Source: a phage
Reading direction: 5' to 3' (one strand)
Length of the DNA stretch: 64,000 nt
Sequence record: PZ256263.1
The translations under genes were made by a program, and so were the position numbers. The notes beneath the pieces are model-generated. The model was not told where the DNA came from and ran no database searches. It worked only from the letters and a program-made list of their open reading frames with translations. This document shows, piece after piece, positions 686-38,603 of the stretch. The first letter of the stretch is position 1. Every line of letters starts with the position of its first letter.

Positions 686-687
686 GT

Positions 688-936: not shown

Positions 937-944
937 GTGATCTA

Positions 945-1157
945 ATGACACAAGAAGAGAAAGATATACTCATCCAGAATGCGTATCTACTGTTTTCCTC
1001 TGAGGATGTTCTGTTCGATCAGCTTTCTAAATTGTGGAAAGTGTCCGAAGAAGAGACTAAAGAGAAGTTTTATTCTGGCATAACAGAAGATTACAAATCT
1101 TTTCTTGGTGAGGTGCTGAGAGATCGGCATGTGTATCTAAGTAATTACGCCTGTTAA
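945..1157 (+). CDS. hypothetical protein
   Basis: Track ORF 70 aa, co-directional and closely spaced with neighbours. Confidence 0.45.
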   Translation: MTQEEKDILIQNAYLLFSSEDVLFDQLSKLWKVSEEETKEKFYSGITEDYKSFLGEVLRDRHVYLSNYAC

Positions 1158-1390
1158 TAGGAAAACAAGTGATCACATTTAATGATTCTACAGAAGAAAT
1201 GACCAACATGAAAGGCTTCGGTCAACGACAGCCTGACGGTTCAATTATCTGGTTCGTAAATGGACAGAAAAAGGTAGCTAAATAAGCCCTCTTCTCTCCT
1301 CCTTTTAGTACTATGACGCCTCTCTGTGGGCGGCCCAATTTGCGTAGGGAATTCCCTCTACGCAGTCATGATTTTTAAGGAATTTCCCCT

Positions 1391-1624
1391 ATGTCTAAAG
1401 TAAGTGCAATTGATGCAATCCGTCAACCGTTCCAGTTCCAATCCAAATCAACCCAAACCTTCAGCGAGCCTAAGCAAATTCGCTTGGGTGGCACAGAGAA
1501 GACTGTGTTTGATCTGGCTAAAAACAAGAGCGTTACCGTAGTTGATGGTGGCACTCTGGTTAACGTTTCCCATCGTATCCGCACTGGCAAAACTGCCAAA
1601 GATCGTGCTAAGAAAGGTGAGTAA
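1391..1624 (+). CDS. hypothetical protein (possible distant member of paralog family A)
   Basis: Track ORF 77 aa; TGA/ATG overlap with next gene; SD-like AAGGAA upstream. Confidence 0.5.
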   Translation: MSKVSAIDAIRQPFQFQSKSTQTFSEPKQIRLGGTEKTVFDLAKNKSVTVVDGGTLVNVSHRIRTGKTAKDRAKKGE

Positions 1625-1866
1625 TGAAAATAGGGAAACCAGCTAAGGATGTTCTAGCGAAGATTGGTGATATCTCTATTGGGGAAGTTTTCTCAGCTGA
1701 GCACTTTTCAAGTTACTACATGAGAATCCCTGACACTAAAGTTGAGGGTTGCATCATCCCTGCCAACGCAGTTAACCTGAACACAGGACACCTGTCTGCA
1801 TTCAAACCTGATTCACAGGTTACTGAAATCAAAGATGCCTACCTCGCCTTTGGTGGGGATAAGTAG
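1624..1866 (+). CDS. small early protein, tandem paralog family A
   Basis: Track ORF 80 aa; SYYMRIPDTKVEGCIIPANAVNLNTGHLS closely parallels ORF 440-685. Confidence 0.55.
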   Translation: MKIGKPAKDVLAKIGDISIGEVFSAEHFSSYYMRIPDTKVEGCIIPANAVNLNTGHLSAFKPDSQVTEIKDAYLAFGGDK

Positions 1867-2097
1867 AGTAACATCTATAGCCTTCTTCTGAGGGCTATGT
1901 GAGTTATTCTGACTCAACTAACCTAATCTTAATATATTTCCCGTATGGGGCCGATGCTAGGGCGAGGAATGTTCCTCAAACATCCGTCGGATAGATATTT
2001 TAAGAGCAGGTTATCCACAGATATTGGGTAATATCTTTTTGGATTTAAAGCTTGGCTCTTTTCGGAGAGTCCTTTTTTAAATTCAATGAGAGGAAAT

Positions 2098-2250
2098 ATG
2101 TCTAAATTAGATTTAAAACTGCTAGCAGCAGCGATAGTGATTTGTGCACTAGCACTGGTAACGCAGAGAACATCTGGATTTATTCAGTGTTTCTTTTCTG
2201 GGCAATCCACTTATCAGTGGGTTATTGACGAGTGTAAACAACAGGAGTAA
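2098..2250 (+). CDS. small membrane/secreted protein (50 aa)
   Basis: ATG preceded by GAGAGGAAA; translation MSKLDLKLLAAAIVICALALVTQ... has an N-terminal hydrophobic segment; stop lies 2 nt before the next start; below the track size cutoff. Confidence 0.35.
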   Translation: MSKLDLKLLAAAIVICALALVTQRTSGFIQCFFSGQSTYQWVIDECKQQE

Positions 2251-2252
2251 GT

Positions 2253-2615
2253 ATGAATACACGTCCCATCAAGGGCAACGTTAATATTGAAACTCTGAAC
2301 AAGGTTGCATCAAACCTCGGTGGAATGTCCAACGATGAGCTTGAGCAAGAACTTGCTTGGATTGCAAGTGGTATCAAAGTTGCTAAAGGTAAGATTGCTC
2401 GTGAGCAAAGCAACATGAAAGCTCACAAGTATGTCATCCGTCATGCAAACATGTTACCAGAGCGGGTTGTACATCTTGCCCGTAAAAACTACGCAGAAGC
2501 AAAGAAAGCTCTGGAAGAAGCTACTTTCCAGAAGCATCAATTTATGAACAACTATAGAAACTTCCGAGATATTCTTTATATCCGTAAGTCGATTGAGTTG
2601 ATTAAAAACCAATAG
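2253..2615 (+). CDS. hypothetical protein
   Basis: Track ORF 120 aa; SD AGGAG upstream. Confidence 0.55.
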   Translation: MNTRPIKGNVNIETLNKVASNLGGMSNDELEQELAWIASGIKVAKGKIAREQSNMKAHKYVIRHANMLPERVVHLARKNYAEAKKALEEATFQKHQFMNNYRNFRDILYIRKSIELIKNQ

Positions 2616-2626
2616 AGGTTGGTATA

Positions 2627-3820
2627 ATGTTTCCAGTAACATTAGAAGATACTGAAGGTAATGTTTTAACGGTCAACCCTCCTTGTTATGGGTTCCTTCA
2701 GCTTCGCAACTATAACGGTGGCGTTGATGAAGATGATGACGAAGATGAATACTTCGACCCTAACATGTATGAGGCAACTCATGGGTGGAATATGCACGTT
2801 CGAGTGTGGCATGAAGAAGCTAACGTTCGTAGTGCTGATGGGGAAGAGTTCCTGTTGAGCCGAGAGATGGATATGTGTAAAATCAAGCATATCTGGAACT
2901 CCGGAACTCACATGAAGATGTTAGGTTTTAGACGTTGGCGTGATGAAAAACCTGTATCCGCAGCTTTAGGTTGGGGTGCTATTGATTACGAAGGCGAGCT
3001 TAAAAACAACATTGAACGTTGGAATGACAAAAACCCTGAACATCGAACCACACCTCGTGCTGTACTGGAAGCTATGGAAGCATTTGTGGACAAAGATCGT
3101 CCCTCCTGTTTACGCTGGCACGATAAAGGTTTTATGGGGGTAGCAACTGAAAATGTTCCTGCTGATCGTTGTCTATTCTATTTGATGTTAGATCGAACCT
3201 TCTATTGTGAAGATGAAGAGAGTCAAGTTGAAACCTTCCTCCACAAATGGTTGGTTGAAGGCTGGACAATCCTTCAGTCTTATGTTTACTCACGAATGGT
3301 TAGCACTTACACTAACCTCTTGGGTGAAACGAAAGCAACTCTGGTTGGTAATGATTGGGATGCTTGTATCTTCCCAGCGTCACTATTTACAGTCGGCATG
3401 GCTGATAAATACGCTGAAGCATTTCAAGTGCCTTGGCGTCAACAGTCGTATAGAGACGGGTGTGGTCACTTCCGTGATGAAGACTTTAAGTGGATTCATT
3501 ATGAGAACGATGAAACAGCAGAATTGCGAGTTAACAACTCAATGTTCTTGCCAGTGATGCACCCCGATCTAGTAAAAGATGGGTCAGAGATACTTAAAGG
3601 TGATAATCTTTTGGTTAACTTTACCCGTCGCGTGTCTAAAAATGAGAGAACAGCTAACAGGCTAATCTACGGCATTCGTGCCGAGGCTAAAGACCTGTTC
3701 AACATCTACAACATTATTCAGCGATTTAGTAGTGGAACTCTGGACCAAAGTTCGGAGTATTCAGTGATTCCATCCTCTGAGTGGGATGGTATTATGAGCG
3801 GATTATTTTTAGGAAAATAA
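2627..3820 (+). CDS. hypothetical protein, first gene of amidoligase/GATase cluster
   Basis: Track ORF 397 aa; tightly packed with downstream genes; no recognisable motif. Confidence 0.6.
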   Translation: MFPVTLEDTEGNVLTVNPPCYGFLQLRNYNGGVDEDDDEDEYFDPNMYEATHGWNMHVRVWHEEANVRSADGEEFLLSREMDMCKIKHIWNSGTHMKMLGFRRWRDEKPVSAALGWGAIDYEGELKNNIERWNDKNPEHRTTPRAVLEAMEAFVDKDRPSCLRWHDKGFMGVATENVPADRCLFYLMLDRTFYCEDEESQVETFLHKWLVEGWTILQSYVYSRMVSTYTNLLGETKATLVGNDWDACIFPASLFTVGMADKYAEAFQVPWRQQSYRDGCGHFRDEDFKWIHYENDETAELRVNNSMFLPVMHPDLVKDGSEILKGDNLLVNFTRRVSKNERTANRLIYGIRAEAKDLFNIYNIIQRFSSGTLDQSSEYSVIPSSEWDGIMSGLFLGK

Positions 3821-3830
3821 AAGGTTAGTT

Positions 3831-4802
3831 ATGTCAATCTCCACAACGATCGTACCTCAGAATCTTCAACAAGATTTAGGGGAACAGAAGTTCTTAGGTC
3901 GTGGGTGCTTCGGTATTCACAACTACATGCAAGGCCAGTGTGTAAATGACATTAATGGTGAAGTTATCACGGAAGAAGGGCGCTATCGTCGCTTCAACCG
4001 CGATATCAACTTGCAACTGGAGATGTTGAATTACTGGACTCACTCTTTTCATGGTCATGTTGCATCCGATATTGAAAAGAACTTGATTGAAACAGCGGAC
4101 ATTATGAACTCTATGTCTTGCTATCGTGATGTATTTACAATCACTTCAGCGAACAGTGTTGCTGTCAATCTTCGTGAGCATCCAGCAGATCAGATCTTCA
4201 CAGGACTTATGCTCTTCCGTAGCATTCTGGAAGGGCAGTATCGTGGAATGGATTTCCTAGCAGAAGGAATTGAAGACAGGGAAGAGTGGCTGAAGCGTAA
4301 ACGCATCGGAATCGCTCTAGTGTTAGCTGGGTTAGGTCGTGACTTCTTCGGTGGGTGGTCTCAACGAGGAATAGCCAATGGGAATAGCGAGAGCACCTCT
4401 ATTGTTATTAATAACAATATGTCAGCAGCAGCATTCCTTCCTTTGGTTGTAGACTCTGATGAATACACGAAACAAGTATGGGTTCAAAATCCCTTCGGTG
4501 TTGGTGACAATGAGAATGGTTATGTTCGTAACCATAACCCAGAGGCCTTACGAAGATTTGCTCGTGCTAAAGATCAAGACCCAACTGAGTATGCAACAAT
4601 GTCAGAGTGGTTAAGACTCTGGTCCATCTGTTATGGTCACAAACGTGAAGCAATAGACGACAAGTTGGGAAACATTACAGTACAAAACTTTACAGCCCGA
4701 CTGATTCAAAGAACTGGAGCAGATTCCGGTCTTACTCTTGAAGAAGTTGGTAACACAATCTCATCTCTCTTTTCTGAACTAGTGGAGTATTACAATGACT
4801 AA
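3831..4802 (+). CDS. hypothetical protein (cluster member)
   Basis: Track ORF 323 aa; overlaps next gene start by 8 nt. Confidence 0.6.
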   Translation: MSISTTIVPQNLQQDLGEQKFLGRGCFGIHNYMQGQCVNDINGEVITEEGRYRRFNRDINLQLEMLNYWTHSFHGHVASDIEKNLIETADIMNSMSCYRDVFTITSANSVAVNLREHPADQIFTGLMLFRSILEGQYRGMDFLAEGIEDREEWLKRKRIGIALVLAGLGRDFFGGWSQRGIANGNSESTSIVINNNMSAAAFLPLVVDSDEYTKQVWVQNPFGVGDNENGYVRNHNPEALRRFARAKDQDPTEYATMSEWLRLWSICYGHKREAIDDKLGNITVQNFTARLIQRTGADSGLTLEEVGNTISSLFSELVEYYND

Positions 4803-5601
4803 GCGCAAATTCCTCATCGGCTCTGACCCTGAAATGTTCGTTCGTACTAACAACGGTATCATCACCTCTGTGGCTGGTCTGTTAGGCTGTTCTAAGGACG
4901 ATAAGATCACTCTGGCTAAGGATGTTCGTCTTCAAGAGGACAACGTACTGGCTGAGTTTGATATTGACCCACAGAGCGGCTTTGAAGCGTTTAACGATAA
5001 CATGCAACGTGGTATCGATCTCACCAACAATGTCCTGAACAAACTGGACATGGAAACAGCTCCGGGTGTTAGCTCTCACATCTTCACTGAAGAAGAGATG
5101 AAGACTTTCAATGAATCAGCGTTCATCTTCGGATGTACTCCTGATTTCAACGCTTTCACTGGTCAGAAGAATCCATCCCCGACTTCTCAGAACAAGGGGC
5201 TTCGTACTGCCGGTGGTCACGTACATCTTGGCGTAGTTGGTGCTTTGGATATCACCCTGCAAACTCAGATGATGCTGGGTGTGCTGTGTGACTATTTCCT
5301 GTCCCTCCCAGCAGTTATTATGGATAAAGATACTCGCCGTAAAGAACTCTACGGTAAAGCGTCTGCAATCCGTTATAAAGACTATGGTATTGAATATCGT
5401 TCACTGTCTAACTTCTGGATTAGTGATCGTGAAAACCGTAAGTTTGTTTATGATCAGGTTGACAAAGTTGTTCAGCAGTGTGATATGTCCACTCTGATGG
5501 CATTGCACTCTCGCCTTCCGATTGAGAAGCTTCATGAAATCATTAACGGCAACAACGTTAAAGAAGCGGACCAGCAGATCAAACTCCTTCAGGTAGCATA
5601 A
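4795..5601 (+). CDS. amidoligase-like (carboxylate-amine ligase) enzyme, paralog 1
   Basis: Track ORF 268 aa; motif series GSDPE ... LAEFDIDP ... GGHVHLG ... YGIEYRS parallels the series in ORF 6225-7328. Confidence 0.55.
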   Translation: MTKRKFLIGSDPEMFVRTNNGIITSVAGLLGCSKDDKITLAKDVRLQEDNVLAEFDIDPQSGFEAFNDNMQRGIDLTNNVLNKLDMETAPGVSSHIFTEEEMKTFNESAFIFGCTPDFNAFTGQKNPSPTSQNKGLRTAGGHVHLGVVGALDITLQTQMMLGVLCDYFLSLPAVIMDKDTRRKELYGKASAIRYKDYGIEYRSLSNFWISDRENRKFVYDQVDKVVQQCDMSTLMALHSRLPIEKLHEIINGNNVKEADQQIKLLQVA

Positions 5602-5610
5602 GAGGTTATC

Positions 5611-6228
5611 GTGAGCTTAGTAGCTGATTTTTCTCATTACTATAATGGTACATGGATTGCTAAACGAGCAGGTAATATCAACCTTCCGTGTTTTGTGATT
5701 GGTGTTGAGCAGAGCGGTAACTTCCGCAGTGATGACTTCTCTCACGAAGCAGAACAGGCTCTGTACTTTGTTGTAGAGCAGTGGTACAAGAACGAGCAAG
5801 GGAATCTTCGAAACACTACGATGAACATTCCAGTGTTCGACCCAACCTTGATTCTTGAATCACCTGATGTTGGTTATCTGTTCCATAACGGTAACACTGT
5901 AAGCTGGACTCATATTAACCCTGTTCGTCAGAGAGCAAAGGGTTTAATGGGTAATAAGATTCGAAATGCTCCGGGTGTTGGTCGTGCTATCTCCGGGGAG
6001 ATGGTTTACAGTCTGTTCAATCCTGAATTCGAAGGATTGGTTACTCGTTATATTTACATCAACCCTACTGATGGTAAGGTGCATTATAAAGGTGCACTGG
6101 TAGGACAAGTAGATCTGGAAGCGCCTCGTGACTCTTACGGTCAGCAACCGATGCGACTTCTGGAACACTTTCATCACATTTCTGAAAACCTTAGCAATTA
6201 TAATATTACGTTGGTGGATTCGTTATGA
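5611..6228 (+). CDS. hypothetical protein (cluster member)
   Basis: Track ORF 205 aa starting at GTG with AAGAGG upstream; overlaps next gene by 4 nt. Confidence 0.55.
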   Translation: MSLVADFSHYYNGTWIAKRAGNINLPCFVIGVEQSGNFRSDDFSHEAEQALYFVVEQWYKNEQGNLRNTTMNIPVFDPTLILESPDVGYLFHNGNTVSWTHINPVRQRAKGLMGNKIRNAPGVGRAISGEMVYSLFNPEFEGLVTRYIYINPTDGKVHYKGALVGQVDLEAPRDSYGQQPMRLLEHFHHISENLSNYNITLVDSL

Positions 6229-7328
6229 CAACTGTAGCGCAAACTTTTGGATATCGAGAAGGTCGTTTAACTGAGGAGCATAGTTCAATTGCACTTCAGT
6301 GCGGTGTCGGTATTGAACTTGAACTCGAAGGTTCCGATCATATCGAAGCAGATATGTGGGATTGTACAGAGGATGGTTCCCTGCGTAATGGTTGTGAAAT
6401 GGTATGTTCACGACCTTACAACGGACAGGAGTTGTTAGACGCTATCAACAACCTGAGTGAAGCAGTAGCTGAATCGCACGCCGAGGGGACTTGGCGTTGC
6501 TCTACTCACGTTCATATGGATATGAGGGATGCTGATAGTAATATCCTCAAGAAAACCATTCTCGCTTGGACCTTCTATGAAAAGATGTTGTTCAAGTGTT
6601 CAGGCTATCATCGTTACCGTAGCAACTTCTGCCCTGCTTTCGCAGTGGTACAGGCACAGGTAATGAATGCCTCTGACGCATTTAACTACGACGACGAAGA
6701 GTTCTTCAACCGTCTGGTTCGTTCATGGGATAAGTACACATCCCTAAATCTTCTGCCACTTGCCCAATACGGTTCGATTGAGTTCCGTATCAGTGAGCCT
6801 AAGTGGAAACGTGGTCAACTTCTCAATCTGGTTAACCGCTTCTTGATGTTGAAGAAGCTGGCTTTAGATAACGCAGAGATGAGCAATGATCAGTTTATCG
6901 AGCATTTAAATACTGTACGATTTGCCCCAATGCTTCCTTATCTTCCTCTGGATTACAATCTGGATGAATCGGATTTGCATTCAGGGTATTGTATGGCCCG
7001 TGATGTTTTGTATTGTCGTTCTCATGGAGTAGAGCAATCTGGTCGTATTCGTTTACGTCGAACCAACTCTAACGGAGAAGTTCTTGTTGATTTACGTCTT
7101 ATCTCAGACTTCTACGGATTCCTTGGATATGTTCGAGGGAACGCTAACAACTTGTACCAAGAGATTCTGGTTATGCTTCGTACAACTGATCTATCTACTG
7201 TACGATCTGCACCGGAGCAACGTATCCGTGCTATTTTTGACTTGCTACGTGAGTCAGGCCACAGTGATAACAACATCACAGGGTACATTCCAGATCATCT
7301 GGAAAATCAGTTAGAGCAAGCGCTGTAA
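6225..7328 (+). CDS. amidoligase-like (carboxylate-amine ligase) enzyme, paralog 2
   Basis: Track ORF 367 aa; GIELELEG ... EDGSLRNGCEMVCSRP ... STHVHMD ... YGSIEFRISE, consistent with phage amidoligase family signature as I recall it. Confidence 0.6.
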   Translation: MTTVAQTFGYREGRLTEEHSSIALQCGVGIELELEGSDHIEADMWDCTEDGSLRNGCEMVCSRPYNGQELLDAINNLSEAVAESHAEGTWRCSTHVHMDMRDADSNILKKTILAWTFYEKMLFKCSGYHRYRSNFCPAFAVVQAQVMNASDAFNYDDEEFFNRLVRSWDKYTSLNLLPLAQYGSIEFRISEPKWKRGQLLNLVNRFLMLKKLALDNAEMSNDQFIEHLNTVRFAPMLPYLPLDYNLDESDLHSGYCMARDVLYCRSHGVEQSGRIRLRRTNSNGEVLVDLRLISDFYGFLGYVRGNANNLYQEILVMLRTTDLSTVRSAPEQRIRAIFDLLRESGHSDNNITGYIPDHLENQLEQAL

Positions 7329-7407
7329 TCAATGGGTGCCTCTGGTAAAGGGGCACAATTTAAAGGTTAATTAGATGAAAGGGTTTACCCTTCAGGTGGA
7401 TTAGAAA

Positions 7408-9438
7408 ATTTGTGGCATCGTATTAGCTGGCGGTAATCTGTCAAGCACTGATTTAGACGTATTCAACCAACTCTTTTATGCTGGAGTATTCCGAGGACAG
7501 CACTCCTCTGGTATCTTTGGTCAGCGTAAGAGCACTAAGGAAGTCTTCACTTATAAAGAGGCACTTCCTTCTTTCGCATTCATCCTTCAAGATGAGTACA
7601 AGAAACACACCACTGGTGAAACAGCTTACACTGTAGCACCTTCATGGATTGTTGGTCACAGCCGTCATGCAACGAAAGGTGCAGTTAACGCCAAGAACGC
7701 CCATCCTTTCCAACATGGTAACATCACTCTGGTTCATAACGGAACCTTGATGGACCAAGATCTGTTACCTGACAGCAAAAACTTCGAGGTAGACAGTGAG
7801 AACATCTGCCACTCTATTAACACTATTGGTGCAGCAGAGACTATTCAAAAGCTGGATGGTGCTTTCACCTTAATCTGGCATGATGCTTCTGATAACCGTC
7901 TTCATATCATCCGTAACGAAGAGCGTCCATTCCACCTCGCACGTTGTAACAGGGATTGGTTTGGTGCTTCTGAAGAAGACATGTTGATGTGGATTCTAAA
8001 GCGTTCTAAGTCTCACAAAAACCGAATTGATGAGCACTTTGAATGTAAAGTTGGTACAGAATATATCTTTGATATGTCAAACAACAGCATGACTCTAGTT
8101 GAAGAGGTCGCCCACGAGCTTCCGGTTTTTACGGTAATCAATCGTTGGGGCAATTACTACTCGAACAACTACAGCCAAAGCAGCTATCAAAGTTCCTCAA
8201 AAAGCAGTACAAGCAATCCTTACGACACGAAGCCGGGAGTGACAGCGGCAGACGTTCGTCGAAGAAACGCAGTGGTAAGTCAAAACAAAATCGCAAGCGA
8301 TCGAAACATTGACATTCGCCGCGACATGACTGTGGAAATCACACCACATGAGTTTGTTCCTTATGCAACTGCTGGTGCTGTTCCTTCTCGTGGTAAGATG
8401 ATCGGTTATATCTACGATGAGAAGTCTCAAGAGTATATCGAAGGTGATGTTCATAACGTAGACATTAAGGCTTATCAGGATGCCCTGAAAGACCCTAAAA
8501 TCGTTTACCGTGGGACAGTATCCTGCATCTCCGAAGTTAATGCTATGGTTCGTTTAGTGATCACAGCAGGTCGTTTTGTTGACCCATCTCTGGAGAAAAA
8601 GGAGCCTGAGTCTACTACTGCTGACTTCGATGATGATATCCCTTTTGACATGAATGATAGTTTCGTCAATAAGAATGGCGTTACTATCACTCGTAAATTC
8701 TGGGAAGCACACTCTCACGGGGATTGTGGTGGTTGTGACAAACATATTGATTGGAAGGATGCACCTAAAGCAGTCTTCGCATATCAATGCTACTGGCACC
8801 CTGAATGTCTGGAAGGTTTGACTAAACCTAAAGATGAAGAAGAGGAGGAAACTCCTATTGGTGTTTGTGAAATCTGCGGTGAAGTTAAAACAGAGAATGA
8901 GTTCGATGAAGAGCTTAGTCGTCTTCGTGGTGAAGATATCTGTAAAGTCTGCGCTGTAGATGTAAAGAAGAAAGTGTCTAATGCTACGATCAAAGATGGT
9001 TATGTCTGGATTAAAGCAACAGATACAACAAACGCCCGTCGTCCTGAATTTGCTTTACGTGTAACTGAAGATATGATTGGTCGTATGACTGTATTACCTT
9101 CCTCAGCGAAACAGACAGGCATCACTCTGGAGGATGTTGTTGATGCTTATGTTGAGAAACGTAGCAACAGTATTTTTGCAATCTCAACTAAGCCAAAAAA
9201 GGAGGAACCTGCTGAGAAAGCAGGTGTGTTTCCTGAATCACGAACAGCTCTCCGCAAAACTGTTGTCAGCTTCGACGGAAACCGAAGCACTGACTTCACC
9301 AAAGCCATGTGGTCAACCCTCGGATACTGCTCAGAGTGTTTTAAGCAGATTCCGTGGCGCGATGCTGAAAGTTGTACGCTTGGTTCTATGAATCAAGTTT
9401 ATTGTAATTCTCCTAAATGTTCATTGAATAGAGGTTAA
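7408..9438 (+). CDS. class II (Ntn-type) glutamine amidotransferase domain protein with Cys-rich C-terminal region; predicted ATT start
   Basis: Frame is open from the TAG at 7402-7404; translation begins (I)CGIVLAGG...FRGQHSSGIF and continues ...GHSRHATKG...NAHPF...LVHNG, the class II GATase pattern; no in-frame ATG/GTG/TTG before 7747; AGGTGGA at 7394-7400 sits 7 nt before ATT. Confidence 0.65.
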   Translation: MCGIVLAGGNLSSTDLDVFNQLFYAGVFRGQHSSGIFGQRKSTKEVFTYKEALPSFAFILQDEYKKHTTGETAYTVAPSWIVGHSRHATKGAVNAKNAHPFQHGNITLVHNGTLMDQDLLPDSKNFEVDSENICHSINTIGAAETIQKLDGAFTLIWHDASDNRLHIIRNEERPFHLARCNRDWFGASEEDMLMWILKRSKSHKNRIDEHFECKVGTEYIFDMSNNSMTLVEEVAHELPVFTVINRWGNYYSNNYSQSSYQSSSKSSTSNPYDTKPGVTAADVRRRNAVVSQNKIASDRNIDIRRDMTVEITPHEFVPYATAGAVPSRGKMIGYIYDEKSQEYIEGDVHNVDIKAYQDALKDPKIVYRGTVSCISEVNAMVRLVITAGRFVDPSLEKKEPESTTADFDDDIPFDMNDSFVNKNGVTITRKFWEAHSHGDCGGCDKHIDWKDAPKAVFAYQCYWHPECLEGLTKPKDEEEEETPIGVCEICGEVKTENEFDEELSRLRGEDICKVCAVDVKKKVSNATIKDGYVWIKATDTTNARRPEFALRVTEDMIGRMTVLPSSAKQTGITLEDVVDAYVEKRSNSIFAISTKPKKEEPAEKAGVFPESRTALRKTVVSFDGNRSTDFTKAMWSTLGYCSECFKQIPWRDAESCTLGSMNQVYCNSPKCSLNRG

Positions 9439-9440
9439 GT

Positions 9441-9674
9441 ATGGAAATTCGTAAGATGATGCTGGATAACGTTGTAACCACTCGACGTATCCCGATGACG
9501 AGCACAGGATGTGATAACCTTCGTGCAATCCAGAAGTGGATGCAAGCTGGTATTGGTCAAGTACTTGAGACACAGGTTGAGGTTCCTTTCCCAACGGTGA
9601 TCAATAACGTACTTGCTGATTATGTAAAAATCAAAGGCATTAAGGTAGAACCTCATGTCAAATCTGGTTCCTAA
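9441..9674 (+). CDS. hypothetical protein
   Basis: Track ORF 77 aa immediately after GATase stop. Confidence 0.5.
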   Translation: MEIRKMMLDNVVTTRRIPMTSTGCDNLRAIQKWMQAGIGQVLETQVEVPFPTVINNVLADYVKIKGIKVEPHVKSGS

Positions 9675-18935: not shown

Positions 18936-19211
18936 ATGTCTAAAGTAATTAAGTTTTATAGTGATCAGTGTGCTCCATGTAAAGCAATGGCTCCTACCTT
19001 TGAGAAGGTTGTTAAGGAGTTTGATGTAGAAGTGGAAGAGATTAACATCCTTGAAGGTGATGGTCGTGAACAAGCTGTTAAGTATGGTGTACGAAGTATC
19101 CCTGCTTTCGTTGTGCCTGACCGTAACAGTGGTGCACACTACAGCCTCTCCGGTATGCAGACTGAAGCAAACCTGAAAGCATTTTTGGACACAGCCCTGA
19201 GAAATAAGTAA
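18936..19211 (+). CDS. thioredoxin-like protein
   Basis: Track ORF 91 aa; CAPC active-site motif near the N-terminus. Confidence 0.7.
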   Translation: MSKVIKFYSDQCAPCKAMAPTFEKVVKEFDVEVEEINILEGDGREQAVKYGVRSIPAFVVPDRNSGAHYSLSGMQTEANLKAFLDTALRNK

Positions 19212-19226
19212 TAAGGATATTCACGG

Positions 19227-19883
19227 ATGAATGAACAACTACAAGCAACATTAATTGAAGCTATGGGAAGTGATCGTAGCGTAGTAAACGCAGCTCGAGT
19301 TTCCTTTGGCGTAACCCGTGAAGGTGATTTAAATGAACGTGATGAACGTCTCATCAACTTTCTCGCAAGAGAGAAGCATGTTACCCCATTCCGACACCCG
19401 CAAGTCAGTTTCCGATGCAAAGCACCTATTGCAATTGCGAGACAGTTGGGCAAGCATCAGGTTGGATTCTCGTGGAACGAAATGTCCCGGCGGTATAAAG
19501 ATGGAGCAGTTGAAGTCTTCATCCCTAAAGAGATTTTTGCGAGACCTTCGGACCTCCATGCAGGTTCAGGGGTTCAACTCATCGACGGAGAGCGAGCTGA
19601 AGCATTAATGCTGATTAACGATTCATATGAAGCTTCTCTAGCAGCATATGACAAGTTGATTGAATTTATTGCACCAGAGCAAGCTCGATTTGTTCTTCCT
19701 CAGGGGATGATCACTGAGTGGGTGTGGACCGGTTCTTTGTATGGCTGGTTTGAGTTGTGTCGTCAGCGACTCTCCTCTCACGCTCAATATGAAGTTCGAG
19801 TGTTTGCTAAATCTCTAGATGAAGAGATGGCTAAGCTCTACCCAATCTCGTGGGCAGCTCTGAAGAAAACTTTGGAGAGTTAA
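19227..19883 (+). CDS. thyX: flavin-dependent thymidylate synthase
   Basis: Track ORF 218 aa; NAARVSFG ... QLGKHQVGFSWNEMSRRY matches the ThyX signature, with KHQ where RHR is usual. Confidence 0.75.
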   Translation: MNEQLQATLIEAMGSDRSVVNAARVSFGVTREGDLNERDERLINFLAREKHVTPFRHPQVSFRCKAPIAIARQLGKHQVGFSWNEMSRRYKDGAVEVFIPKEIFARPSDLHAGSGVQLIDGERAEALMLINDSYEASLAAYDKLIEFIAPEQARFVLPQGMITEWVWTGSLYGWFELCRQRLSSHAQYEVRVFAKSLDEEMAKLYPISWAALKKTLES

Positions 19884-19899
19884 TATCAGAGGCTTTCTG

Positions 19900-20133
19900 A
19901 TGAAAATCAAACATATTACAGATATTCAGGAGGCATTTAGAATGCTTCCTCGAAGAGAGAAGGATAAGATTAAAAAGCTTATTCAAGTTTATGGTCATAC
20001 ATCTAAAGATGATGTAGACTATATGCCTTCTACTTTCGTAGAGTGTGGGATTGCTCGCGGTTTCACATTCGACCATAAAGTGTTTCAGCAATTCGTTGAC
20101 CACTGGAGAAAAGATGGAAAAGAAAGTCTGTAG
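19900..20133 (+). CDS. hypothetical protein
   Basis: Track ORF 77 aa. Confidence 0.45.
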   Translation: MKIKHITDIQEAFRMLPRREKDKIKKLIQVYGHTSKDDVDYMPSTFVECGIARGFTFDHKVFQQFVDHWRKDGKESL

Positions 20134-20828: not shown

Positions 20829-21000
20829 ATGTGAAGGAACAAACCTTCATTTAAGTAATAAGGTTATCAGAGAGCTTGCCAAAGGCTCTCCAACCAAAGG
20901 GAAGAACAAACGATTTACTAACGTCAGGGTTTATACAGCAATCTGTAAAGACTGCTTAACTACTGAGTGTCATTACGAAGAAATTGGAGAGCGTAAATGA
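20815..21000 (+). CDS. small zinc-ribbon protein
   Basis: Track ORF 61 aa; CSKCEG ... CKDCLTTEC. Confidence 0.45.
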   Translation: MKCSKCEGTNLHLSNKVIRELAKGSPTKGKNKRFTNVRVYTAICKDCLTTECHYEEIGERK

Positions 21001-21734
21001 GTCGTCGTCAATCACGGAAAGAATCACGGAAAGACCTTCGTCGGGAAGCACTTGTCACTCGTAAGGGTAAGCGAGAGTTTGAAGAGGTGGTTTTAGCAAA
21101 GCCTGTAGTCCCTCAGAACCAGTTTCAGTCTGAGCTACTCAATGCTATTAAGACTAAACAAGTTGTGTTCACAGACGCTCCTGCGGGCTGTGGTAAGACC
21201 TTTGTAATCACTTCCACAGTTATTGATGCACTGAAGAGTGGTAAGATTCAGAAGATCATTCTGAGTCGTCCTTCAGTTGGTATGGGCAATTCTCTTGGGT
21301 TGCTTCCGGGAGGGATGCGTGAGAAGTTTGAACCTTACCTGATGCCTATCATTGATGTTATTACTCAGCGATATGGTAAGGGGTTCTATGAATGCCAGCT
21401 CGGTAACAGTAACATTGAGTTCGTACCTCTGGAATATCTCCGTGGTCGTTCTTTCAATGATGCTATTGTTATTGTTGATGAGTTCCAGAACACAACTAAA
21501 GATGAAGCCTTCTCAATCATGACTCGATTGGGAGAAACCTCTCAGCTGTTCTGCATGGGTGATACTAACCAGCATGATATGCGTGGTCGTGAGAGTGGTC
21601 TTACTTGGGCTACTAACTTTATTGATGAACATGATCTGTATGAGTTCGCTGAGATTGTAGACGGAGAATCAGATGACATTGTTCGTTCTGGTTTTTGTAA
21701 GGCGATTGTTAAAGCAATGGAAAAGAAAGCTTAA
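20997..21734 (+). CDS. phoH: PhoH-like ATPase
   Basis: Track ORF 245 aa; Walker A DAPAGCGKTF, Walker B IVIVDEFQN. Confidence 0.75.
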   Translation: MSRRQSRKESRKDLRREALVTRKGKREFEEVVLAKPVVPQNQFQSELLNAIKTKQVVFTDAPAGCGKTFVITSTVIDALKSGKIQKIILSRPSVGMGNSLGLLPGGMREKFEPYLMPIIDVITQRYGKGFYECQLGNSNIEFVPLEYLRGRSFNDAIVIVDEFQNTTKDEAFSIMTRLGETSQLFCMGDTNQHDMRGRESGLTWATNFIDEHDLYEFAEIVDGESDDIVRSGFCKAIVKAMEKKA

Positions 21735-21745
21735 ATAGTAACTTA

Positions 21746-21754
21746 TAATGTATA
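21746..21754 (+). promoter_or_regulatory. TAATGTATA motif, candidate phage-sigma-dependent promoter
   Basis: Exact TAATGTATA 12 nt after phoH stop, about 24 nt upstream of AAGGAG and the ATG at 21791; a second degenerate copy TAATGTACA follows. Confidence 0.5.
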
Positions 21755-21790
21755 CTCCTTAATGTACACTGATATATTAAGGAGTTTTAA

Positions 21791-22105
21791 ATGGCAGACC
21801 ATGTAGGAAAGAGAGATTATGCACAAGAAAGACGTACCGCAATTGCCCGTGGTGAGACAGGCGTTGGGAGCAAGAGCGGAGATGCTCAGCGCCACCGTGC
21901 ACGTCGCATCGTTGAAAAGCGCGATGGAAAAGCTGCTGTCAGAGGTAAAGATGTTGGACACAAACGAGCTGTCAAGTCTGGAGGCTCTAATGCGTCAAGC
22001 AACTTACGTGTTGAATCAGTCAGCTCAAACCGTTCAAACGGCGGCAAAAGTGGTGATCGAGCTGGAAAAGCAGCTGGAGCACGCAAAGGAGCTTTAAGCT
22101 CATAA
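21791..22105 (+). CDS. basic Gly/Arg/Lys/Ser-rich low-complexity protein
   Basis: Track ORF 104 aa with strong SD AAGGAG; first codon positions G-rich and third positions A/T-rich, favouring this frame over the overlapping ORF 21819-22097. Confidence 0.45.
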   Translation: MADHVGKRDYAQERRTAIARGETGVGSKSGDAQRHRARRIVEKRDGKAAVRGKDVGHKRAVKSGGSNASSNLRVESVSSNRSNGGKSGDRAGKAAGARKGALSS

Positions 22106-22115
22106 AGAGGTTATA

Positions 22116-22409
22116 GTGTCAGCAGAAACAAAAAGATGTACAATTCACACTTATTGTAAATTCTGTAAAGCAGAGGGTGTAAAAAGAGTTGCAACTTTAA
22201 TGACCAAGTATTCTCCAAGTAGAGGATACAGGGACCACTATAAGCACTACTCTTGTAGTGATCACTCCCATCTATTAGAAGATACAGACCCGAATAGAAC
22301 AAGGAGAGAGCATAACATCGATCTGAGAGCTACTCTCAAGGAAATGAAAAATAACTCTCGGAACAACCATTACACTGAAGCTGACTATCAAACTTGGCTT
22401 CGTCTCTAG
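22116..22409 (+). CDS. Cys/His-rich putative zinc-binding protein
   Basis: Track ORF 97 aa (GTG start, AAGAGG upstream); CTIHTYCKFCK ... HYSCSDHSH. Confidence 0.5.
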   Translation: MSAETKRCTIHTYCKFCKAEGVKRVATLMTKYSPSRGYRDHYKHYSCSDHSHLLEDTDPNRTRREHNIDLRATLKEMKNNSRNNHYTEADYQTWLRL

Positions 22410-22413
22410 AACA

Positions 22414-22446
22414 AAGGCTGCCTAATCAGGTGGCCTTTTCTTTTTT
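22414..22446 (+). terminator. rho-independent terminator
   Basis: 9-bp stem aaggctgcc/ggtggcctt with 6-nt loop followed by tttcttttttat, immediately after ORF 22116-22409. Confidence 0.65.
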
Positions 22447-22478
22447 ATAAACCAAATTAAACTTCTTAGGTAATAAAT

Positions 22479-22733
22479 ATGTCTATTGTAAAAATCGTAA
22501 ATATCATTGATGTAACTCGTACCGGTAAGACTATCAGTTGGAAATTCACCAATAAGCATAGAGGTTCAGAGAACATCATTCGTTATATGATTCAACAAAA
22601 CCCAAATACAGCTCGCACTAACGTACTCCTTCGAGGAGCTGATGGAAAATTTATTTCTTATAAGAATAAGAACGTAGAAAAATCTTTCCGTGTTGCAGTA
22701 GAAAACCTCATCCCATTCCCTAAAGGAGTTTAA
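22479..22733 (+). CDS. small protein, tandem paralog family C (1 of 2)
   Basis: Track ORF 84 aa; TARTNVLLRGADGKFISYKNKN...ENLIPFPKG. Confidence 0.55.
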   Translation: MSIVKIVNIIDVTRTGKTISWKFTNKHRGSENIIRYMIQQNPNTARTNVLLRGADGKFISYKNKNVEKSFRVAVENLIPFPKGV

Positions 22734-22734
22734 T

Positions 22735-23019
22735 ATGAATAAGTTAGCTATGGTTCAGATTCGAGACACATACCCTAATCGCCCAGAACAGAAACCACGT
22801 ACTTGGTCTTACCTACTAGCTGAGAGTAAGACTATTGACAACTTCTCTGTAGGGATTGATACTATCCCGACCAGTATCACTTTGCTTCCTCACAAAACAG
22901 CCAGAACTCATGTGATGTTACGAGACAGCAAAGGTAAATTTATCTCTTATCGTGATTCACGAATCAATAATGAGATTAAATCTGCTATGGAATTTTTGAT
23001 GCCATTCCCAAGAGGTTGA
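22735..23019 (+). CDS. small protein, tandem paralog family C (2 of 2)
   Basis: Track ORF 94 aa; TARTHVMLRDSKGKFISYRDSR...EFLMPFPRG. Confidence 0.55.
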   Translation: MNKLAMVQIRDTYPNRPEQKPRTWSYLLAESKTIDNFSVGIDTIPTSITLLPHKTARTHVMLRDSKGKFISYRDSRINNEIKSAMEFLMPFPRG

Positions 23020-23022
23020 GCG

Positions 23023-23181
23023 ATGAAAGAATACATTTATGTAGGACAGCGCTGGTTCGGTGATGAATGGGAAGGTGGATATAGCGTTGTGAAAGCTTTT
23101 AAGTCTGAGGAAGATGCCAAGGCATGGGTCTTAAAAGATGACGTTGGCGAGAGAACTTATATTGAAGTCGAGGTAGAGTAG
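23023..23181 (+). CDS. small hypothetical protein (52 aa)
   Basis: ATG 4 nt after upstream stop; MKEYIYVGQRWFGDEWEGGYSVVKAF...; stop 1 nt before next start. Confidence 0.35.
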   Translation: MKEYIYVGQRWFGDEWEGGYSVVKAFKSEEDAKAWVLKDDVGERTYIEVEVE

Positions 23182-23182
23182 G

Positions 23183-23605
23183 ATGCCATTACCAGCTAGA
23201 CATCAAAACCGTTTCCTAGTTCTCAAGTGGGATGATATCGAAATGAATCTCACTGAACACGAACTTGATTTGTTCCATGAACTACTGTCAGAGATTCGCT
23301 CTGGTATCCCTGATCGTCAGTATGTAGTTATCAGTGATAAGCACCCTCAAGAGTTTGAAGAAGCTTGGGGTATGAAGCTGGCTTATATTCAGAGAGCTAT
23401 TCGAGAAAGAGAAGAAGTCGCTAACCAAAGGGTTGTGGCTCATTTAGTACGAGAGCAACCTCGTGAAGCTAGGGCTAACCATGCACCACCCCCACCCCCT
23501 CCTTGGACAGTTGTCAACGGGACAGTTAGGGCTTACAGTGATGAAGCTACCATGTTAGATGTAGTAGAAGACAACCAAGCATTTACAGATTTACTTTACC
23601 AATAA
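23183..23605 (+). CDS. hypothetical protein with poly-Pro tract
   Basis: Track ORF 140 aa; HAPPPPPPWT. Confidence 0.5.
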   Translation: MPLPARHQNRFLVLKWDDIEMNLTEHELDLFHELLSEIRSGIPDRQYVVISDKHPQEFEEAWGMKLAYIQRAIREREEVANQRVVAHLVREQPREARANHAPPPPPPWTVVNGTVRAYSDEATMLDVVEDNQAFTDLLYQ

Positions 23606-23621
23606 TTTAAAGGAGTATAAA

Positions 23622-25466
23622 GTGAGCAACCCGGACGCTCTCCCATTTTTGACAGAGATGACTGTCGCTGATATAATCTCTAAGCAAGCAAAGCACGGAG
23701 TGAGTTTCAACCGAAGAAATGCTCGGTGGTATGTTCACCTCCTTAAAGAGATTATTGTTAATATTGACAAAGAACTGATTCCTCTCTTACCTAAGATGAG
23801 ATTAGATGGCTCAACTTATATGAAGCCGTTTAAGAAGTCTGGAGCTTTACAGAAGTGGCCTCAAGCCTATTGCGATAGAGTTGGCCTCAAGAGAGAAGAC
23901 ATTGGTGGAGCATTCACCTGTGTCGAGTACGTAGACTTTGACCCATCGAAAGATGCACGAGTTAAAGAAGCCCTTATGGATGAGGGTTTTCTTCCTCCAG
24001 AGTTTAACGTATCTAAAAAGCCTTGGAACACTTTCGAAATTAAGAAAGACATGCGAAAGTATGGAACATACCAAGCATGGTACACCGCTTGGATGCGAGG
24101 CAATGCTAAACAGAAACAGACAGCCGAGATGGTTGACGCTGATATTAAGAAGTTCTTAGAGAAACACTTTAGGTTCAAGACTAAGAACTACATGAAGGCT
24201 TATGTGTTTGGTTTGGGATTAAACCCTAACCGACGTAACCCTGTAACATTTGACGAGATTAAGAAAGCACTAGCTACCTCAAACAAGTGGCCTACAGCTC
24301 CTACAAACCTCGAGGAGACTCTTGAAGAAGGGTTAGGGGGTGAGCTAGGGAGTGTCGGAAGTTTGCTTAAGAGACGTGTTGTAGCGGCTCACAGGCTAGG
24401 TCTTATTAGTGGACTTATAGCAAAGGAGCGCGAAGATGGTAAACTTTCGGCAGAAGCTAACAGCTGCGCTACGCCGACTTTTCGATTCAAACATCGTATC
24501 GTGGTTAATATTCCCTCCCGTGGTTTGTTTGGTCATGAGTGTCGCAGTTTGTTTGAGTCTGACTATAACTCAGATGATGATCACTCTCGTCCTTTCGTTA
24601 TTACTAACGTTGTTCCTGATGGTTGTTATATACGAAAAGGTACTAACGTAATTTATGAAAAAGGTAAGCCGGGGAAGAAAGATAAGCCTGTAGGTGCTTA
24701 CAAATATTACATACCCGCTGGTAAAGAAGTATTCTTAGGGTATGATGGTTCTGGATTAGAGTTGCGTATGCTTGCACACTACCTCATTAAAGAGTGTAGA
24801 GATATGCTTGCTGAAGCAATAGAAGAAAACAATCCAGCTAAGAAAGCTCTGGCAGAACGTGGTTTAGCTTCTGCTATTATGTATCGTGATATTCTCCTTG
24901 AAGGTGATATCCACTCTCACAACCAGAAACTTGCTGGTCTTCCTACTCGTGACAACGCTAAGACATTTATCTACGCATTCAACTATGGTGCTGGTGATGC
25001 TAAGCTCGGTTCAATTGTAGGTGGTGGGGCTGACGAAGGTTCAGTGATGCGAGCACGTTTCTTGGCAGAGAACCCGTGTATTGCAATCCTCATTGATCGT
25101 ATGACAGAGAAAGCTGCTCAAGGATACTTGATTGGTGTTGATGGTCGTAAGATTACAATGAGACGGGATGCCACTGGTAAGGTTATGGTTCATAAAGCAC
25201 TTAACACCCTCCTGCAATGTGCTGGTGCTGTTGTTATGAAATATGCTATGATGTTCCTTAACAAGTGGATTGAGAGAGATGGGGTTCGTTGTGCTAAGGT
25301 AATTGATATGCACGATGAGGGCCAGTTCTCAGTGAACCGTAATGATGTACAGAAACTCAAAGAACACACCGAGCTTTGTGTTAAGAAGGCTGGTGAGTAT
25401 TTGAACATGGAATGTCCTCTGGCATCTGATTGTCAGATTGGACTTAACTGGATGCATACACACTAA
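23622..25466 (+). CDS. DNA polymerase, family A polymerase domain (T7 gp5-like), lacking the 3'-5' exonuclease motifs
   Basis: Track ORF 614 aa (GTG start, AGGAG upstream); motif A GYDGSGLELRMLAHY, motif B RDNAKTFIYAFNYGAGDAKLG, motif C HDEGQF, C-terminal GLNWMHTH. Confidence 0.9.
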   Translation: MSNPDALPFLTEMTVADIISKQAKHGVSFNRRNARWYVHLLKEIIVNIDKELIPLLPKMRLDGSTYMKPFKKSGALQKWPQAYCDRVGLKREDIGGAFTCVEYVDFDPSKDARVKEALMDEGFLPPEFNVSKKPWNTFEIKKDMRKYGTYQAWYTAWMRGNAKQKQTAEMVDADIKKFLEKHFRFKTKNYMKAYVFGLGLNPNRRNPVTFDEIKKALATSNKWPTAPTNLEETLEEGLGGELGSVGSLLKRRVVAAHRLGLISGLIAKEREDGKLSAEANSCATPTFRFKHRIVVNIPSRGLFGHECRSLFESDYNSDDDHSRPFVITNVVPDGCYIRKGTNVIYEKGKPGKKDKPVGAYKYYIPAGKEVFLGYDGSGLELRMLAHYLIKECRDMLAEAIEENNPAKKALAERGLASAIMYRDILLEGDIHSHNQKLAGLPTRDNAKTFIYAFNYGAGDAKLGSIVGGGADEGSVMRARFLAENPCIAILIDRMTEKAAQGYLIGVDGRKITMRRDATGKVMVHKALNTLLQCAGAVVMKYAMMFLNKWIERDGVRCAKVIDMHDEGQFSVNRNDVQKLKEHTELCVKKAGEYLNMECPLASDCQIGLNWMHTH

Positions 25467-28701: not shown

Positions 28702-28710
28702 TATACATTA
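28702..28710 (-). promoter_or_regulatory. TAATGTATA motif on the minus strand, antisense orientation in a + strand noncoding region
   Basis: Plus strand reads tatacatta; no minus-strand ATG in the next 180 nt downstream. Confidence 0.35.
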
Positions 28711-28762: not shown

Positions 28763-28771
28763 TAATGTATA
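28763..28771 (+). promoter_or_regulatory. TAATGTATA motif, candidate phage-sigma-dependent promoter for the SSB-like gene
   Basis: Exact motif about 46 nt upstream of AAGGA and the ATG at 28831. Confidence 0.5.
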
Positions 28772-38594: not shown

Positions 38595-38603
38595 TATACA
38601 TTA
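38595..38603 (-). promoter_or_regulatory. TAATGTATA motif, candidate promoter for the large ejection-protein gene
   Basis: Minus strand reads ctaTAATGTATAtag, about 28 nt upstream of AGGAG and ATG 38556. Confidence 0.5.

Follow-up and report, generated by a model that had tools for sequence, protein, structure and literature searches.

What is encoded by a GC-rich patch of phage DNA that is open in two overlapping frames, and why does its composition differ from that of its surroundings? The question is raised by positions 21791-22105 of a 64,000-nt stretch of the phage sequence record PZ256263.1, hereafter called the window, to which the coordinates refer. A preliminary description had read the patch as an island, possibly of horizontally acquired DNA, encoding a disordered Gly/Arg/Lys-rich protein, an interpretation which was partly supported by the present analysis. 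In fact, the feature is an ordinary, already annotated phage gene: the window comes from a Kuravirus, a coliphage of the phiEco32/SU10 type (Gordonclarkvirinae), the flanking 2.8 kb sharing 92-96% identity with about 100 records of such phages from Escherichia and Shigella, and in the Kuravirus records the 315-nt open reading frame (ORF) is a coding sequence (CDS) named 'hypothetical protein', lying between a PhoH-like gene and the DNA polymerase gene. As a whole, the locus is with good probability best explained as an expressed middle gene which encodes a cysteine-less HNH protein with a role in the replication phase, and which owes its oddities to its composition.

The patch does stand out from its surroundings as had been claimed, since positions 21791-22102 have a GC content of 51.6% against 42.4% for the window (standard deviation 3.3% among 315-nt windows), and 21791-22105 lies at the 99th percentile of such windows, with about five patches of this kind in the stretch. 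As regards the open frames, the two reported on the plus strand, starting at 21791 and 21819, were found, while in place of a single long minus-strand frame there are two shorter ORFs. The 21791 frame had been preferred for its strong Shine-Dalgarno sequence, its G-rich first codon positions and its A/T-rich third positions, all of which could be confirmed (AAGGAG ahead of the ATG, G in 47% of first positions, A/T in 68% of third positions). The checks which had been proposed, namely codon periodicity, homology of both translations and proteomics, favour the same frame. Among 15 Kuravirus-group sequences, the variable sites are distributed over its codon positions 1/2/3 as 25/13/53, and the summed pairwise ratio of nonsynonymous to synonymous differences (pN/pS) is 0.165, compared with 1.63 and 2.9 for the +1 and +2 frames, respectively. 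Its product matches the family phrog_4590 (E = 7e-41), is found by tblastn in 254 phage records (Escherichia, Pseudomonas, Aeromonas, Vibrio, Salmonella, Proteus, cyanophage) and has about 200 relatives of about 100 amino acids among 5.8 billion proteins searched, while the +1 product gave no match in the family searches (Pfam, NCBIfam, PADLOC, PHROG, PDB sequences). Moreover, the 21791 product is 100% identical to gp56 of phage SU10 (calculated mass 10.83 kDa), and the proteomic evidence is already in the literature: SU10 CDS 56 was detected by mass spectrometry as a hypothetical protein of 10.8 kDa, on the basis of 2 peptides which cover 18.3% of it (PMC4281155, Table 2). This coverage equals 19 of 104 residues and would fit a pair of tryptic peptides from frame 0, one of 11 and one of 8 residues. 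Since the substitution pattern over codon positions, the pN/pS values, the conservation of the family and the published SU10 gp56 peptides all agree, 21791-22105 is a genuine translated gene, with 21791 as its coding frame.

The cause of the GC excess is to be found in the protein. The GC contents at codon positions 1, 2 and 3 (GC1, GC2 and GC3) are 0.635, 0.587 and 0.327, compared with a GC3 of 0.31-0.39 and a GC2 of 0.35-0.42 in the neighbouring genes; since GC3 is at the level of the neighbours, the excess sits in the codon positions 1 and 2, which determine the amino acid. Across 42 distinct homologous loci, the GC3 of the gene ranges from 0.17 to 0.94 and tracks the GC content of the flanks (r = 0.87), while GC1+2 stays at 0.45-0.62, and the gene is therefore a GC island in AT-rich phages and not in GC-rich ones. 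The idea that the shift in composition marks horizontally acquired DNA had thus to be abandoned, as the GC3 of 0.33 is that of the background, GC3 goes with the GC content of the respective phage throughout the 42 loci, and the gene sits at one and the same position in practically all Kuravirus records. The openness of the +1 frame has a similar explanation, because a +1 stop requires a T at the second codon position of the 21791 frame and few codons (13 of 104) have it. When synonymous codons were permuted with the protein and the codon usage held fixed, the mean number of +1 stops was 0.66 compared with 1 observed, the permuted number being equal to or below the observed one in 91% of cases, and the outcome was alike for 41 other distinct homologous sequences, with no excess avoidance of stops. 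Both the GC excess and the long +1 frame are, in short, automatic consequences of a protein which is rich in Gly, Ala, Arg, Ser and Lys and poor in hydrophobic residues, and the +1 frame was judged to be a by-product of the frame-0 amino-acid sequence and no second gene. The same by-product has been annotated elsewhere: gp26 of LUZ24 ('contains transmembrane domain', positions 3514-3783 of the retrieved locus L004) is the +1 frame, the conserved frame (3468-3779) being unannotated, and orf21 of SCYZ1 (L127, 15243-15518) is again the +1 frame, with the conserved HNH-like frame (15224-15505) left without annotation. The locus thus offers a worked example of how a Gly/Ala/Arg/Lys-rich protein gives rise to a local GC peak and a phantom ORF, even one annotated as a gene in other phages.

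Regarding the product, its sequence and predicted fold indicate a small, very basic, cysteine-less member of the HNH superfamily, forming a distinct phage-only subfamily for which Pfam has no model. An alignment of 33 diverse homologs, 55-89% identical to the window protein, contains 26 invariant columns and a strongly conserved domain over residues ~8-85, which comprises an N-terminal block (R-D-Y-x-x-E-R-x-x-A-x-x-R-G-E-T-G-x-G-S-x-S-x-D-A-x-R-H-R-A-R-R) and a family core (V-D-H-K-x3-K-x-G-G-S-N-x2-S-N-L-R-V-R-S-x-S-x-N-x-S-x-G-G). H57, N71, L72 and N80 are invariant in all 33 homologs, and within the beta-beta-alpha core the proposed roles would be those of general base at the end of strand 1 for H57, structural Asn for N71 and metal ligand on the helix for N80. 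AlphaFold2 predicted two helices, a beta-hairpin (53-57, 72-76) and a helix (77-82), with a mean predicted local distance difference test score (pLDDT) of 69, which reaches ~80 over residues 31-80; the last ~20 residues, Gly/Lys/Arg-rich and with a pLDDT of ~52-55, look like a flexible basic tail. The Pfam model HNH (PF01844) was matched, although weakly, by 25 of the 33 homologs (best 5e-4) and HNH_3 (PF13392) by 11 of them (best 7.5e-5). Furthermore, the family profile retrieved 315 clusters from 1.84 billion representatives, some members of which exceed the curated Pfam thresholds for HNH or HNH_3 (P0215, 24.1 against 21.4 bits; P0201, 25.8 against 24.8; P0224, 126 bits). As for structure, 25 of the 27 Foldseek matches in the PDB are HNH nucleases, superposing over a core of ~25 residues at 0.8-1.0 A, each of them individually non-significant (E >= 2.3), and the matches among the viral models of BFVD are mostly 'HNHc domain' proteins. 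The spacing of H57, N71 and N80 (H-14-N-9-N) is that of H840, N854 and N863 in SpCas9, the Cas9 segment having been verified against PDB sequences.

Several results weigh against this assignment. The window protein itself has no HNH match in Pfam (E <= 1), NCBIfam or PDB-sequence searches, the confidence of the model is moderate (mean pLDDT 69), the Foldseek PDB matches all have E >= 2.3, and the hhalign comparison of the family with the Cas9 HNH segment was non-significant (E 0.068 over 8 columns). In addition, the D-H dyad of the superfamily is lacking in the window protein, whose sole departure from the columns conserved at 90% or more is G56, present in 15 of 15 Kuravirus-group sequences; this glycine replaces the residue which the spacing aligns with the metal-binding Asp D839 of SpCas9, and catalysis by this copy is uncertain. 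The zinc-binding CxxC pairs of many, not all, HNH members are likewise absent, as the protein has no cysteine.

The family is found as well at the C-terminus of five large proteins (252-958 amino acids) of metagenomic phage-like contigs, and the N-terminal parts of these fusions have no Pfam or PHROG match and no informative context. A PADLOC search with the window protein and the +1 product returned nothing useful beyond phrog_4590. Automatic names given to orthologs are inconsistent: 'Cas8 protein' (Ptacy1532), 'PhoH-like' (XT18), 'cytidyltransferase' (SeKF_80), 'putative restriction endonuclease' (pSal-SNUABM-01) and McrA (JGI). The 'Cas8' label probably derives from Cas8-HNH fusions, which are also among the weak Foldseek matches.

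The distribution of the family links it to phage replication genes. It is confined to phages, a search of 185,579 species genomes having given 5 tiny contigs of metagenome-assembled genomes. In the 39 loci with a detectable homolog of the family-A DNA polymerase of the window, this homolog lies 109-2673 nt downstream on the same strand, and more distant loci have a family-A polymerase, an ATP-dependent DNA ligase or a ribonucleotide reductase nearby. The small protein outdoes the polymerase in conservation (mean identity of 62% against 44% in the distant loci), and its tree follows that of the polymerase (Spearman 0.66). The gene is among the few middle genes common to all five C3-morphotype phages compared (PMC4281155). 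Very different podophages (LUZ24, window 1-20000, phiEco32, SeKF_80, LAh_6, PhCF1.2, IME271) share, near the polymerase module, a block of early/middle genes with an amidoligase, a glutamine amidotransferase, an ATP-grasp/RimK protein, a COOH-NH2 ligase-like protein and a primase/helicase.

Other explanations of the patch must be considered together with the preferred one. That the 21791 and 21819 frames both give functional proteins is hardly credible: the +1 frame is open over 92 codons from an ATG, is also open in LUZ24 and SCYZ1, and its translation is by inspection helical and amphipathic, but such openness is expected from the frame-0 amino acids. Moreover, 4-7 stops interrupt this frame in seven relatives, its pN/pS is 1.63 with variability peaking at its second codon position, its product lacks any family match, and its ATG, which is formed by the codons of Tyr10-Ala11, disappears where residue 11 is Lys. 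The +1 products of the window and LUZ24 are unrelated in character, and the SU10 proteomics lists the 10.8 kDa product only, where the +1 product would have 10.17 kDa; the +1 frame was rejected as a gene on its pN/pS, the stops in relatives, the missing family match and the unconserved start. A protein of low complexity which is intrinsically disordered and binds nucleic acids without a defined fold, as the 'KGG-like' label of the preliminary description implied, is very improbable too. Its composition speaks for it, as 66% of the residues are Gly, Ala, Arg, Ser or Lys, Tyr10 is the sole aromatic residue, and Cys, Phe, Pro and Trp are absent, and so does the low pLDDT of the C-terminal ~20 residues. 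Nevertheless, 26 invariant columns among 33 homologs at 55-89% identity are atypical of disordered proteins, the helices and the hairpin/helix core are modelled at a pLDDT of ~80 over residues 31-80, and the Pfam and profile matches support homology to HNH domains. What stood of the earlier claim is the basic Gly/Arg/Lys-rich character (isoelectric point (pI) 11.5), and what fell is the disorder. The nucleic-acid-related role is plausible, DNA binding as such being something that we infer.

The third account to be weighed sees in the gene a present or recent selfish element, a free-standing HNH homing endonuclease which was acquired horizontally near the polymerase gene, with the GC island as the mark of that event, and it appears very unlikely. 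HNH homing endonucleases are common in these phages, with one of 165 amino acids directly downstream in 4E8 and Bas89, homing into DNA polymerase genes is a classic pattern, and very different phages share 60-70% identity in the protein, compared with 22-51% in their polymerases. However, the gene is not sporadic, since it is present at the same locus in ~100 Kuravirus records and in all five C3 phages; its tree follows that of the polymerase, it is under purifying selection, its GC3 is that of the host-phage background and fully ameliorated across 42 loci, it has a conserved promoter and terminator of its own, and the additional DNA-binding modules usual in homing endonucleases are missing from it. 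The LUZ24 copy was also considered as intron-encoded and this was rejected, the polymerase intron region holding a different endonuclease, gp35.

Beyond the window itself, the comparison gave an unexpected lead, a possible connection of the family with a known type of DNA nicking. Phage tf has 14 mapped single-strand nicks at 5'-TACT/RTGMC-3', on one strand only and with no enzyme assigned (PMC3517423), and 13 such nicks were confirmed in Rembedalsseter by nanopore sequencing in 2025, again with no enzyme named, TACTRTGMC being enriched within a cluster of 61 Pseudomonas phages (PMC11780129). Orthologs of the window gene were detected by tblastn in tf-like phages, LUZ24-like phages and Rembedalsseter, and the literature consulted gave neither an assigned nickase nor a report of nicks in Kuravirus. 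The motif was counted in nine whole genomes and in the window (Table 1).

Table 1. Occurrence of the nick motif on the strand of the HNH-like gene and on the opposite strand, in whole genomes unless noted.
Phage	Gene	Residues 56/30	Motif	Gene's strand/opposite strand	Remarks
LUZ24	present	D/G	TACTRTGMC	9/0	expected 0.6
SCYZ1	present	D/G	TACTRTGMC	14/0	
Photobacterium phage PhCF1.2	present	D/G	TACTRTGMC	6/0	
Pantoea phage TacPo2	present	D/G	TACTRTGMC	10/0	
Salmonella phage SeKF_80 (7-11-like)	present	D/G	TACTRTGMC	12/1	
Aeromonas phage LAh_6	present	D/K	TACGGTGAC	6/2	7/2 as TACNGTGAC
Escherichia phage ECO319P1	present	D/K	TACGGTGAC	9/1	
Vibrio phage IME271	absent (no match at E <= 10)		neither variant	0/0	50,000 of 50,345 bp covered
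Window (Kuravirus)	present	G/G	TACTRTGMC	1/1	expected 1.0/1.1, chance level
phiEco32	present	G/G	TACTRTGMC	1/2	expected 1.3/1.2, chance level

In all seven whole genomes with a D56-type copy, a strand-specific motif was found, either TACTRTGAC or TACGGTGAC, and the three genomes examined as blind predictions (ECO319P1, TacPo2 and SCYZ1) fitted in each case. The top de novo word in SeKF_80 was ACTACTGTGACG. In phages of Salmonella, Pantoea and Photobacterium, too, the nick motif of tf and Rembedalsseter is strand-exclusive and highly over-represented, and Aeromonas and Escherichia phages are enriched in its one-base variant ACTACGGTGACG. IME271, the genome architecture of which is of the LUZ24/PhCF1.2 type, is yet without the gene and without the motif. 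Of the ~15 genes common to the seven genomes with the motif, none is as well conserved as the HNH-like gene (minimum identity of 54-60%, compared with 46% at most for the others), which is also the only nuclease-type gene missing from IME271. In addition, residue 30 splits with the motif variant, being Gly in phages with TACT sites and Lys in those with TACG sites, and this holds even for the sister pair SeKF_80 and ECO319P1. As descriptive counts, redundant by lineage, the G30 loci and genomes outside Kuravirus (~627 kb) contain TACTRTGAC 86/2 and TACGGTGAC 1/2, and the K30 loci and genomes (~261 kb) contain TACTRTGAC 2/0 and TACGGTGAC 16/3. On this comparative evidence, the phrog_4590 proteins with the D-H dyad may tentatively be put forward as the enzyme, or the sequence-reading subunit, behind the site- and strand-specific nicks of the tf/LUZ24 type, a serious candidacy which we nonetheless hold to be rather less than probable.

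There are, in fact, good reasons for such caution. The co-occurrence is phylogenetically confounded, as the carriers share a replication module and maybe ancestry with another gene, and the HNH-like tree simply follows that of the polymerase; the comparison covers nine whole genomes with one gene-negative control, IME271, for 50,000 of its 50,345 bp. In Kuravirus the gene is present with the motif at chance level, which requires either that D56G matters or that a second component exists, and some D56-type 20-kb loci have no motif, which sampling or further motif variants may explain. An endo I-like gene (T7 endonuclease I type, PF05367) occurs in all the motif-positive genomes and in IME271 and is absent from Kuravirus, so that a two-component nicking system fits the profile of presence and absence equally well; in phage T5, nicking has been mapped to two genes (PMC3517423). 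Endo I as the sole nicking determinant was rejected, given that PF05367 is a family of junction resolvases and that IME271, which has no motif, carries the gene. A grouping of the HNH-like tree by motif variant over phylogeny was also rejected, as the tree follows the polymerase and residue 30 alone stands out.

One locus, the 18.8-kb IMG/VR contig 3300006802_000901, has five TACTRTGMC on the strand opposite to its HNH-like gene and none on the gene's own, and is the sole locus so oriented. As for Kuravirus, de novo screens of the window and phiEco32 with exact and one-wildcard k-mers gave no strand-specific nick-type word, but only words of coding bias, N-terminal MSKV codons and elements of terminal repeats. 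One strand of phiEco32 has five copies of the 10-mer TTTCCCCGTG, all in or next to the direct terminal repeats (positions 74-110 of the segment L121, and record positions 77079-77471 in L122), with CCCCGT-related words nearby; the 10-mer is possibly a packaging or termini element.

From these features the following mode of action may be proposed. The protein would bind DNA through its basic helices and tail, its HNH site would cut one DNA strand in a metal-dependent reaction, and it would be active during the replication phase, alongside the family-A polymerase, its usual gene neighbour. The canonical D-H-dyad orthologs would then be the most likely enzyme, or the sequence-reading part of it, for tf/LUZ24-type nicks. 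The Kuravirus copy probably no longer nicks at the tf/LUZ24 word, because G56 replaces the Asp and the lineage has no such sites, and it retains a selected function, which could be nicking with altered or relaxed specificity, or DNA binding. A different view, possible but on balance unlikely, is that the Kuravirus copy is a catalytically inactive HNH fold, serving as a DNA-binding or architectural accessory of the replisome with a vestigial nuclease site. It is favoured by the Gly in place of an Asp of the D-H dyad conserved at 90% or more, in 15 of 15 Kuravirus-group sequences, by the want of a nick-type motif in the window or anywhere in the phiEco32 genome, by the very basic nature of the protein (pI 11.5, Gly/Lys/Arg tail) and by the location of the gene in the replication module upstream of the polymerase. 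On the other side, H57, N71 and N80 stay invariant, purifying selection operates within the Kuraviruses (pN/pS 0.165), and D54-V55-G56-H57 is a D-x-G-H pattern. A Gly before the catalytic His also occurs in beta-beta-alpha-metal nucleases which are catalytically competent (D-R-G-H, in Serratia nuclease and EndoG), and with this precedent G56 need not abolish catalysis. An HNH protein which would act in the replication phase is retained as the reading of the window gene, any effect of G56 on its chemistry being something we infer from the family alignment.

The signals around the gene (Table 2) would make up a compact unit, consisting of a phage-sigma/sigma-70 middle promoter, a strong ribosome-binding site, the 104-codon ORF and a terminator, into which an accessory ORF has slipped. 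A middle promoter has been reported in SU10 between CDS56 and CDS57, together with the phage-sigma motif tAATGTATAtA, which precedes start sites by 6-8 nt (PMC4281155). The block ATAATGTATACTCCTTAGTGTACACTGATATATTAAGGAG upstream of the gene, which contains this motif, is kept in 14 of 15 Kuravirus-group loci, even where the sequence farther upstream differs. A near-copy, TAATGTACA at 21760-21768, is specific to the window and reads TAGTGTA[C/T]A in those relatives, 14 of 15, which retain the upstream block. Other exact copies of TAATGTATA are located at 28702-28710 (-), 28763-28771 (+), 38595-38603 (-) and 55172-55180 (-), and those at 28763, 38595 and 55172 agree with the local ORF strand (ORFs of at least 150 amino acids being on the plus strand before ~33 kb and on the minus strand after it).

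Table 2. Features of the locus, in window coordinates.
Feature	Position	Strand	Details
Gene, ATG start; phrog_4590 member, ortholog of phiEco32 phi32_58 and SU10 gp56 (SU10_056)	21791-22105	+	104 aa, pI 11.5
Second ORF, +1 frame	21819-22097	+	92 aa
Shorter ORF	21886-22086	-	66 aa
Shorter ORF	21743-21961	-	72 aa
Predicted HNH-type beta-beta-alpha core, residues 53-82 (D54-V55-G56-H57 ... N71-L72 ... N80)	21947-22036	+	alignment, AlphaFold2, Pfam, Foldseek
Codon GGA for G56, Asp of the D-H dyad in >90% of the family	21956-21958	+	alignment
Putative phage-sigma (phiEco32 gp36-type) middle-promoter motif tAATGTATAtA, here TAATGTATACT	21746-21756	+	exact TAATGTATA at 21746
Shine-Dalgarno AAGGAG	21779-21784	+	6 nt before the ATG; kept in Kuravirus-group relatives retaining the upstream block
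Accessory ORF, phrog_9585, SU10 gp55	22116-22409	+	97 aa, E 5.5e-46; inserted between gene and terminator, outside the conserved unit
Intrinsic-terminator-like hairpin with T-run	22413-22448	+	11-bp stem, 5 GC pairs; annotated terminator in SU7

The segment 22106-22412 is a hot-spot of insertion, with the phrog_9585 ORF in the window, SU10, Bas90, DE5 and Ptacy1532, and the 165-residue HNH homing endonuclease at the same spot in 4E8 and Bas89; in phiEco32, NJ01, Paul, SU7, Bas87 and ECBP2 there is no insert, and the terminator follows the stop codon directly. One peptide of SU10 gp55 was detected by mass spectrometry (PMC4281155). An Rfam scan of 21000-23700 found no RNA element, intron or riboswitch. 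Farther downstream, two adjacent paralogous ORFs (22479-22733, 84 amino acids; 22735-23019, 94 amino acids) both belong to phrog_6814 (E ~1e-37), one being called 'autotransporter adhesin' in some records, and a perfect sigma-70 consensus promoter (TTGACA, 17-nt spacer, TATAAT, extended TG) lies at 23649-23677 (+), within the first 60 nt of the polymerase ORF, which starts with GTG at 23622.

Compared with known systems, the family shares with the HNH superfamily (PF01844, PF13392) the core of hairpin and helix, the His which ends strand 1, the Asn-Leu which opens strand 2 and the Asn on the helix, and differs from it in having no zinc-binding Cys, in its distinctive RGETG.GS.S.DA.RHRARR block and in not being covered as a family by any Pfam model. 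The resemblance to the HNH domain of SpCas9 extends beyond the H-14-N-9-N spacing to the D-V-x-H segment, which aligns with D837-V838-D839-H840; unlike that domain of a 1368-residue enzyme, however, the window protein (104 amino acids) stands alone and has G56 at the D839 position. With regard to the nick system of tf, LUZ24 and Rembedalsseter, orthologs are present and the D56-type whole genomes carry the strand-exclusive motif or its one-base variant, in contrast to the window phage and phiEco32, which are without it, and the enzyme link is proposed by the present analysis. The D-R-G-H nucleases (Serratia nuclease, EndoG) presumably present a parallel, the D-x-G-H before their catalytic His resembling D54-V55-G56-H57, but sequence and fold searches detected no relation beyond the superfamily motif, and the window protein is far smaller than those enzymes. 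I-HmuI and similar nicking HNH endonucleases are small phage proteins, and many of them nick a single strand at a specific sequence. Terminase-associated HNH proteins of the HK97 gp74 type are described in PMC3592412 as small phage HNH proteins. Unlike both types, the window gene is not next to a terminase or cos, not intronic and not sporadic, and its product lacks a zinc ribbon or an additional DNA-binding domain; its place is between PhoH and the DNA polymerase, the phiEco32 terminase being tens of kb away.

That phage DNA can carry localized nicks has been known for about 50 years. In the tf/LUZ24 type the motif has been mapped by experiment, with no enzyme or function assigned, and in this context the comparison of the family names one small and easily expressed candidate protein. 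It also yields predictions as to the site of the candidate, a residue which switches its specificity (G30K) and a natural loss-of-site variant (Kuravirus D56G). If the link is true, a sequence-specific nickase of 100 amino acids would be of practical interest. Moreover, nicking of this type would reach beyond the Pseudomonas phages to Salmonella 7-11-like, Escherichia, Pantoea, Aeromonas and Photobacterium phages, residue 30 (Gly or Lys) would tune position 4 of the site (TACTRTGAC compared with TACGGTGAC), and the window gene would be a natural active-site variant (D56G) in a lineage which has lost every site.

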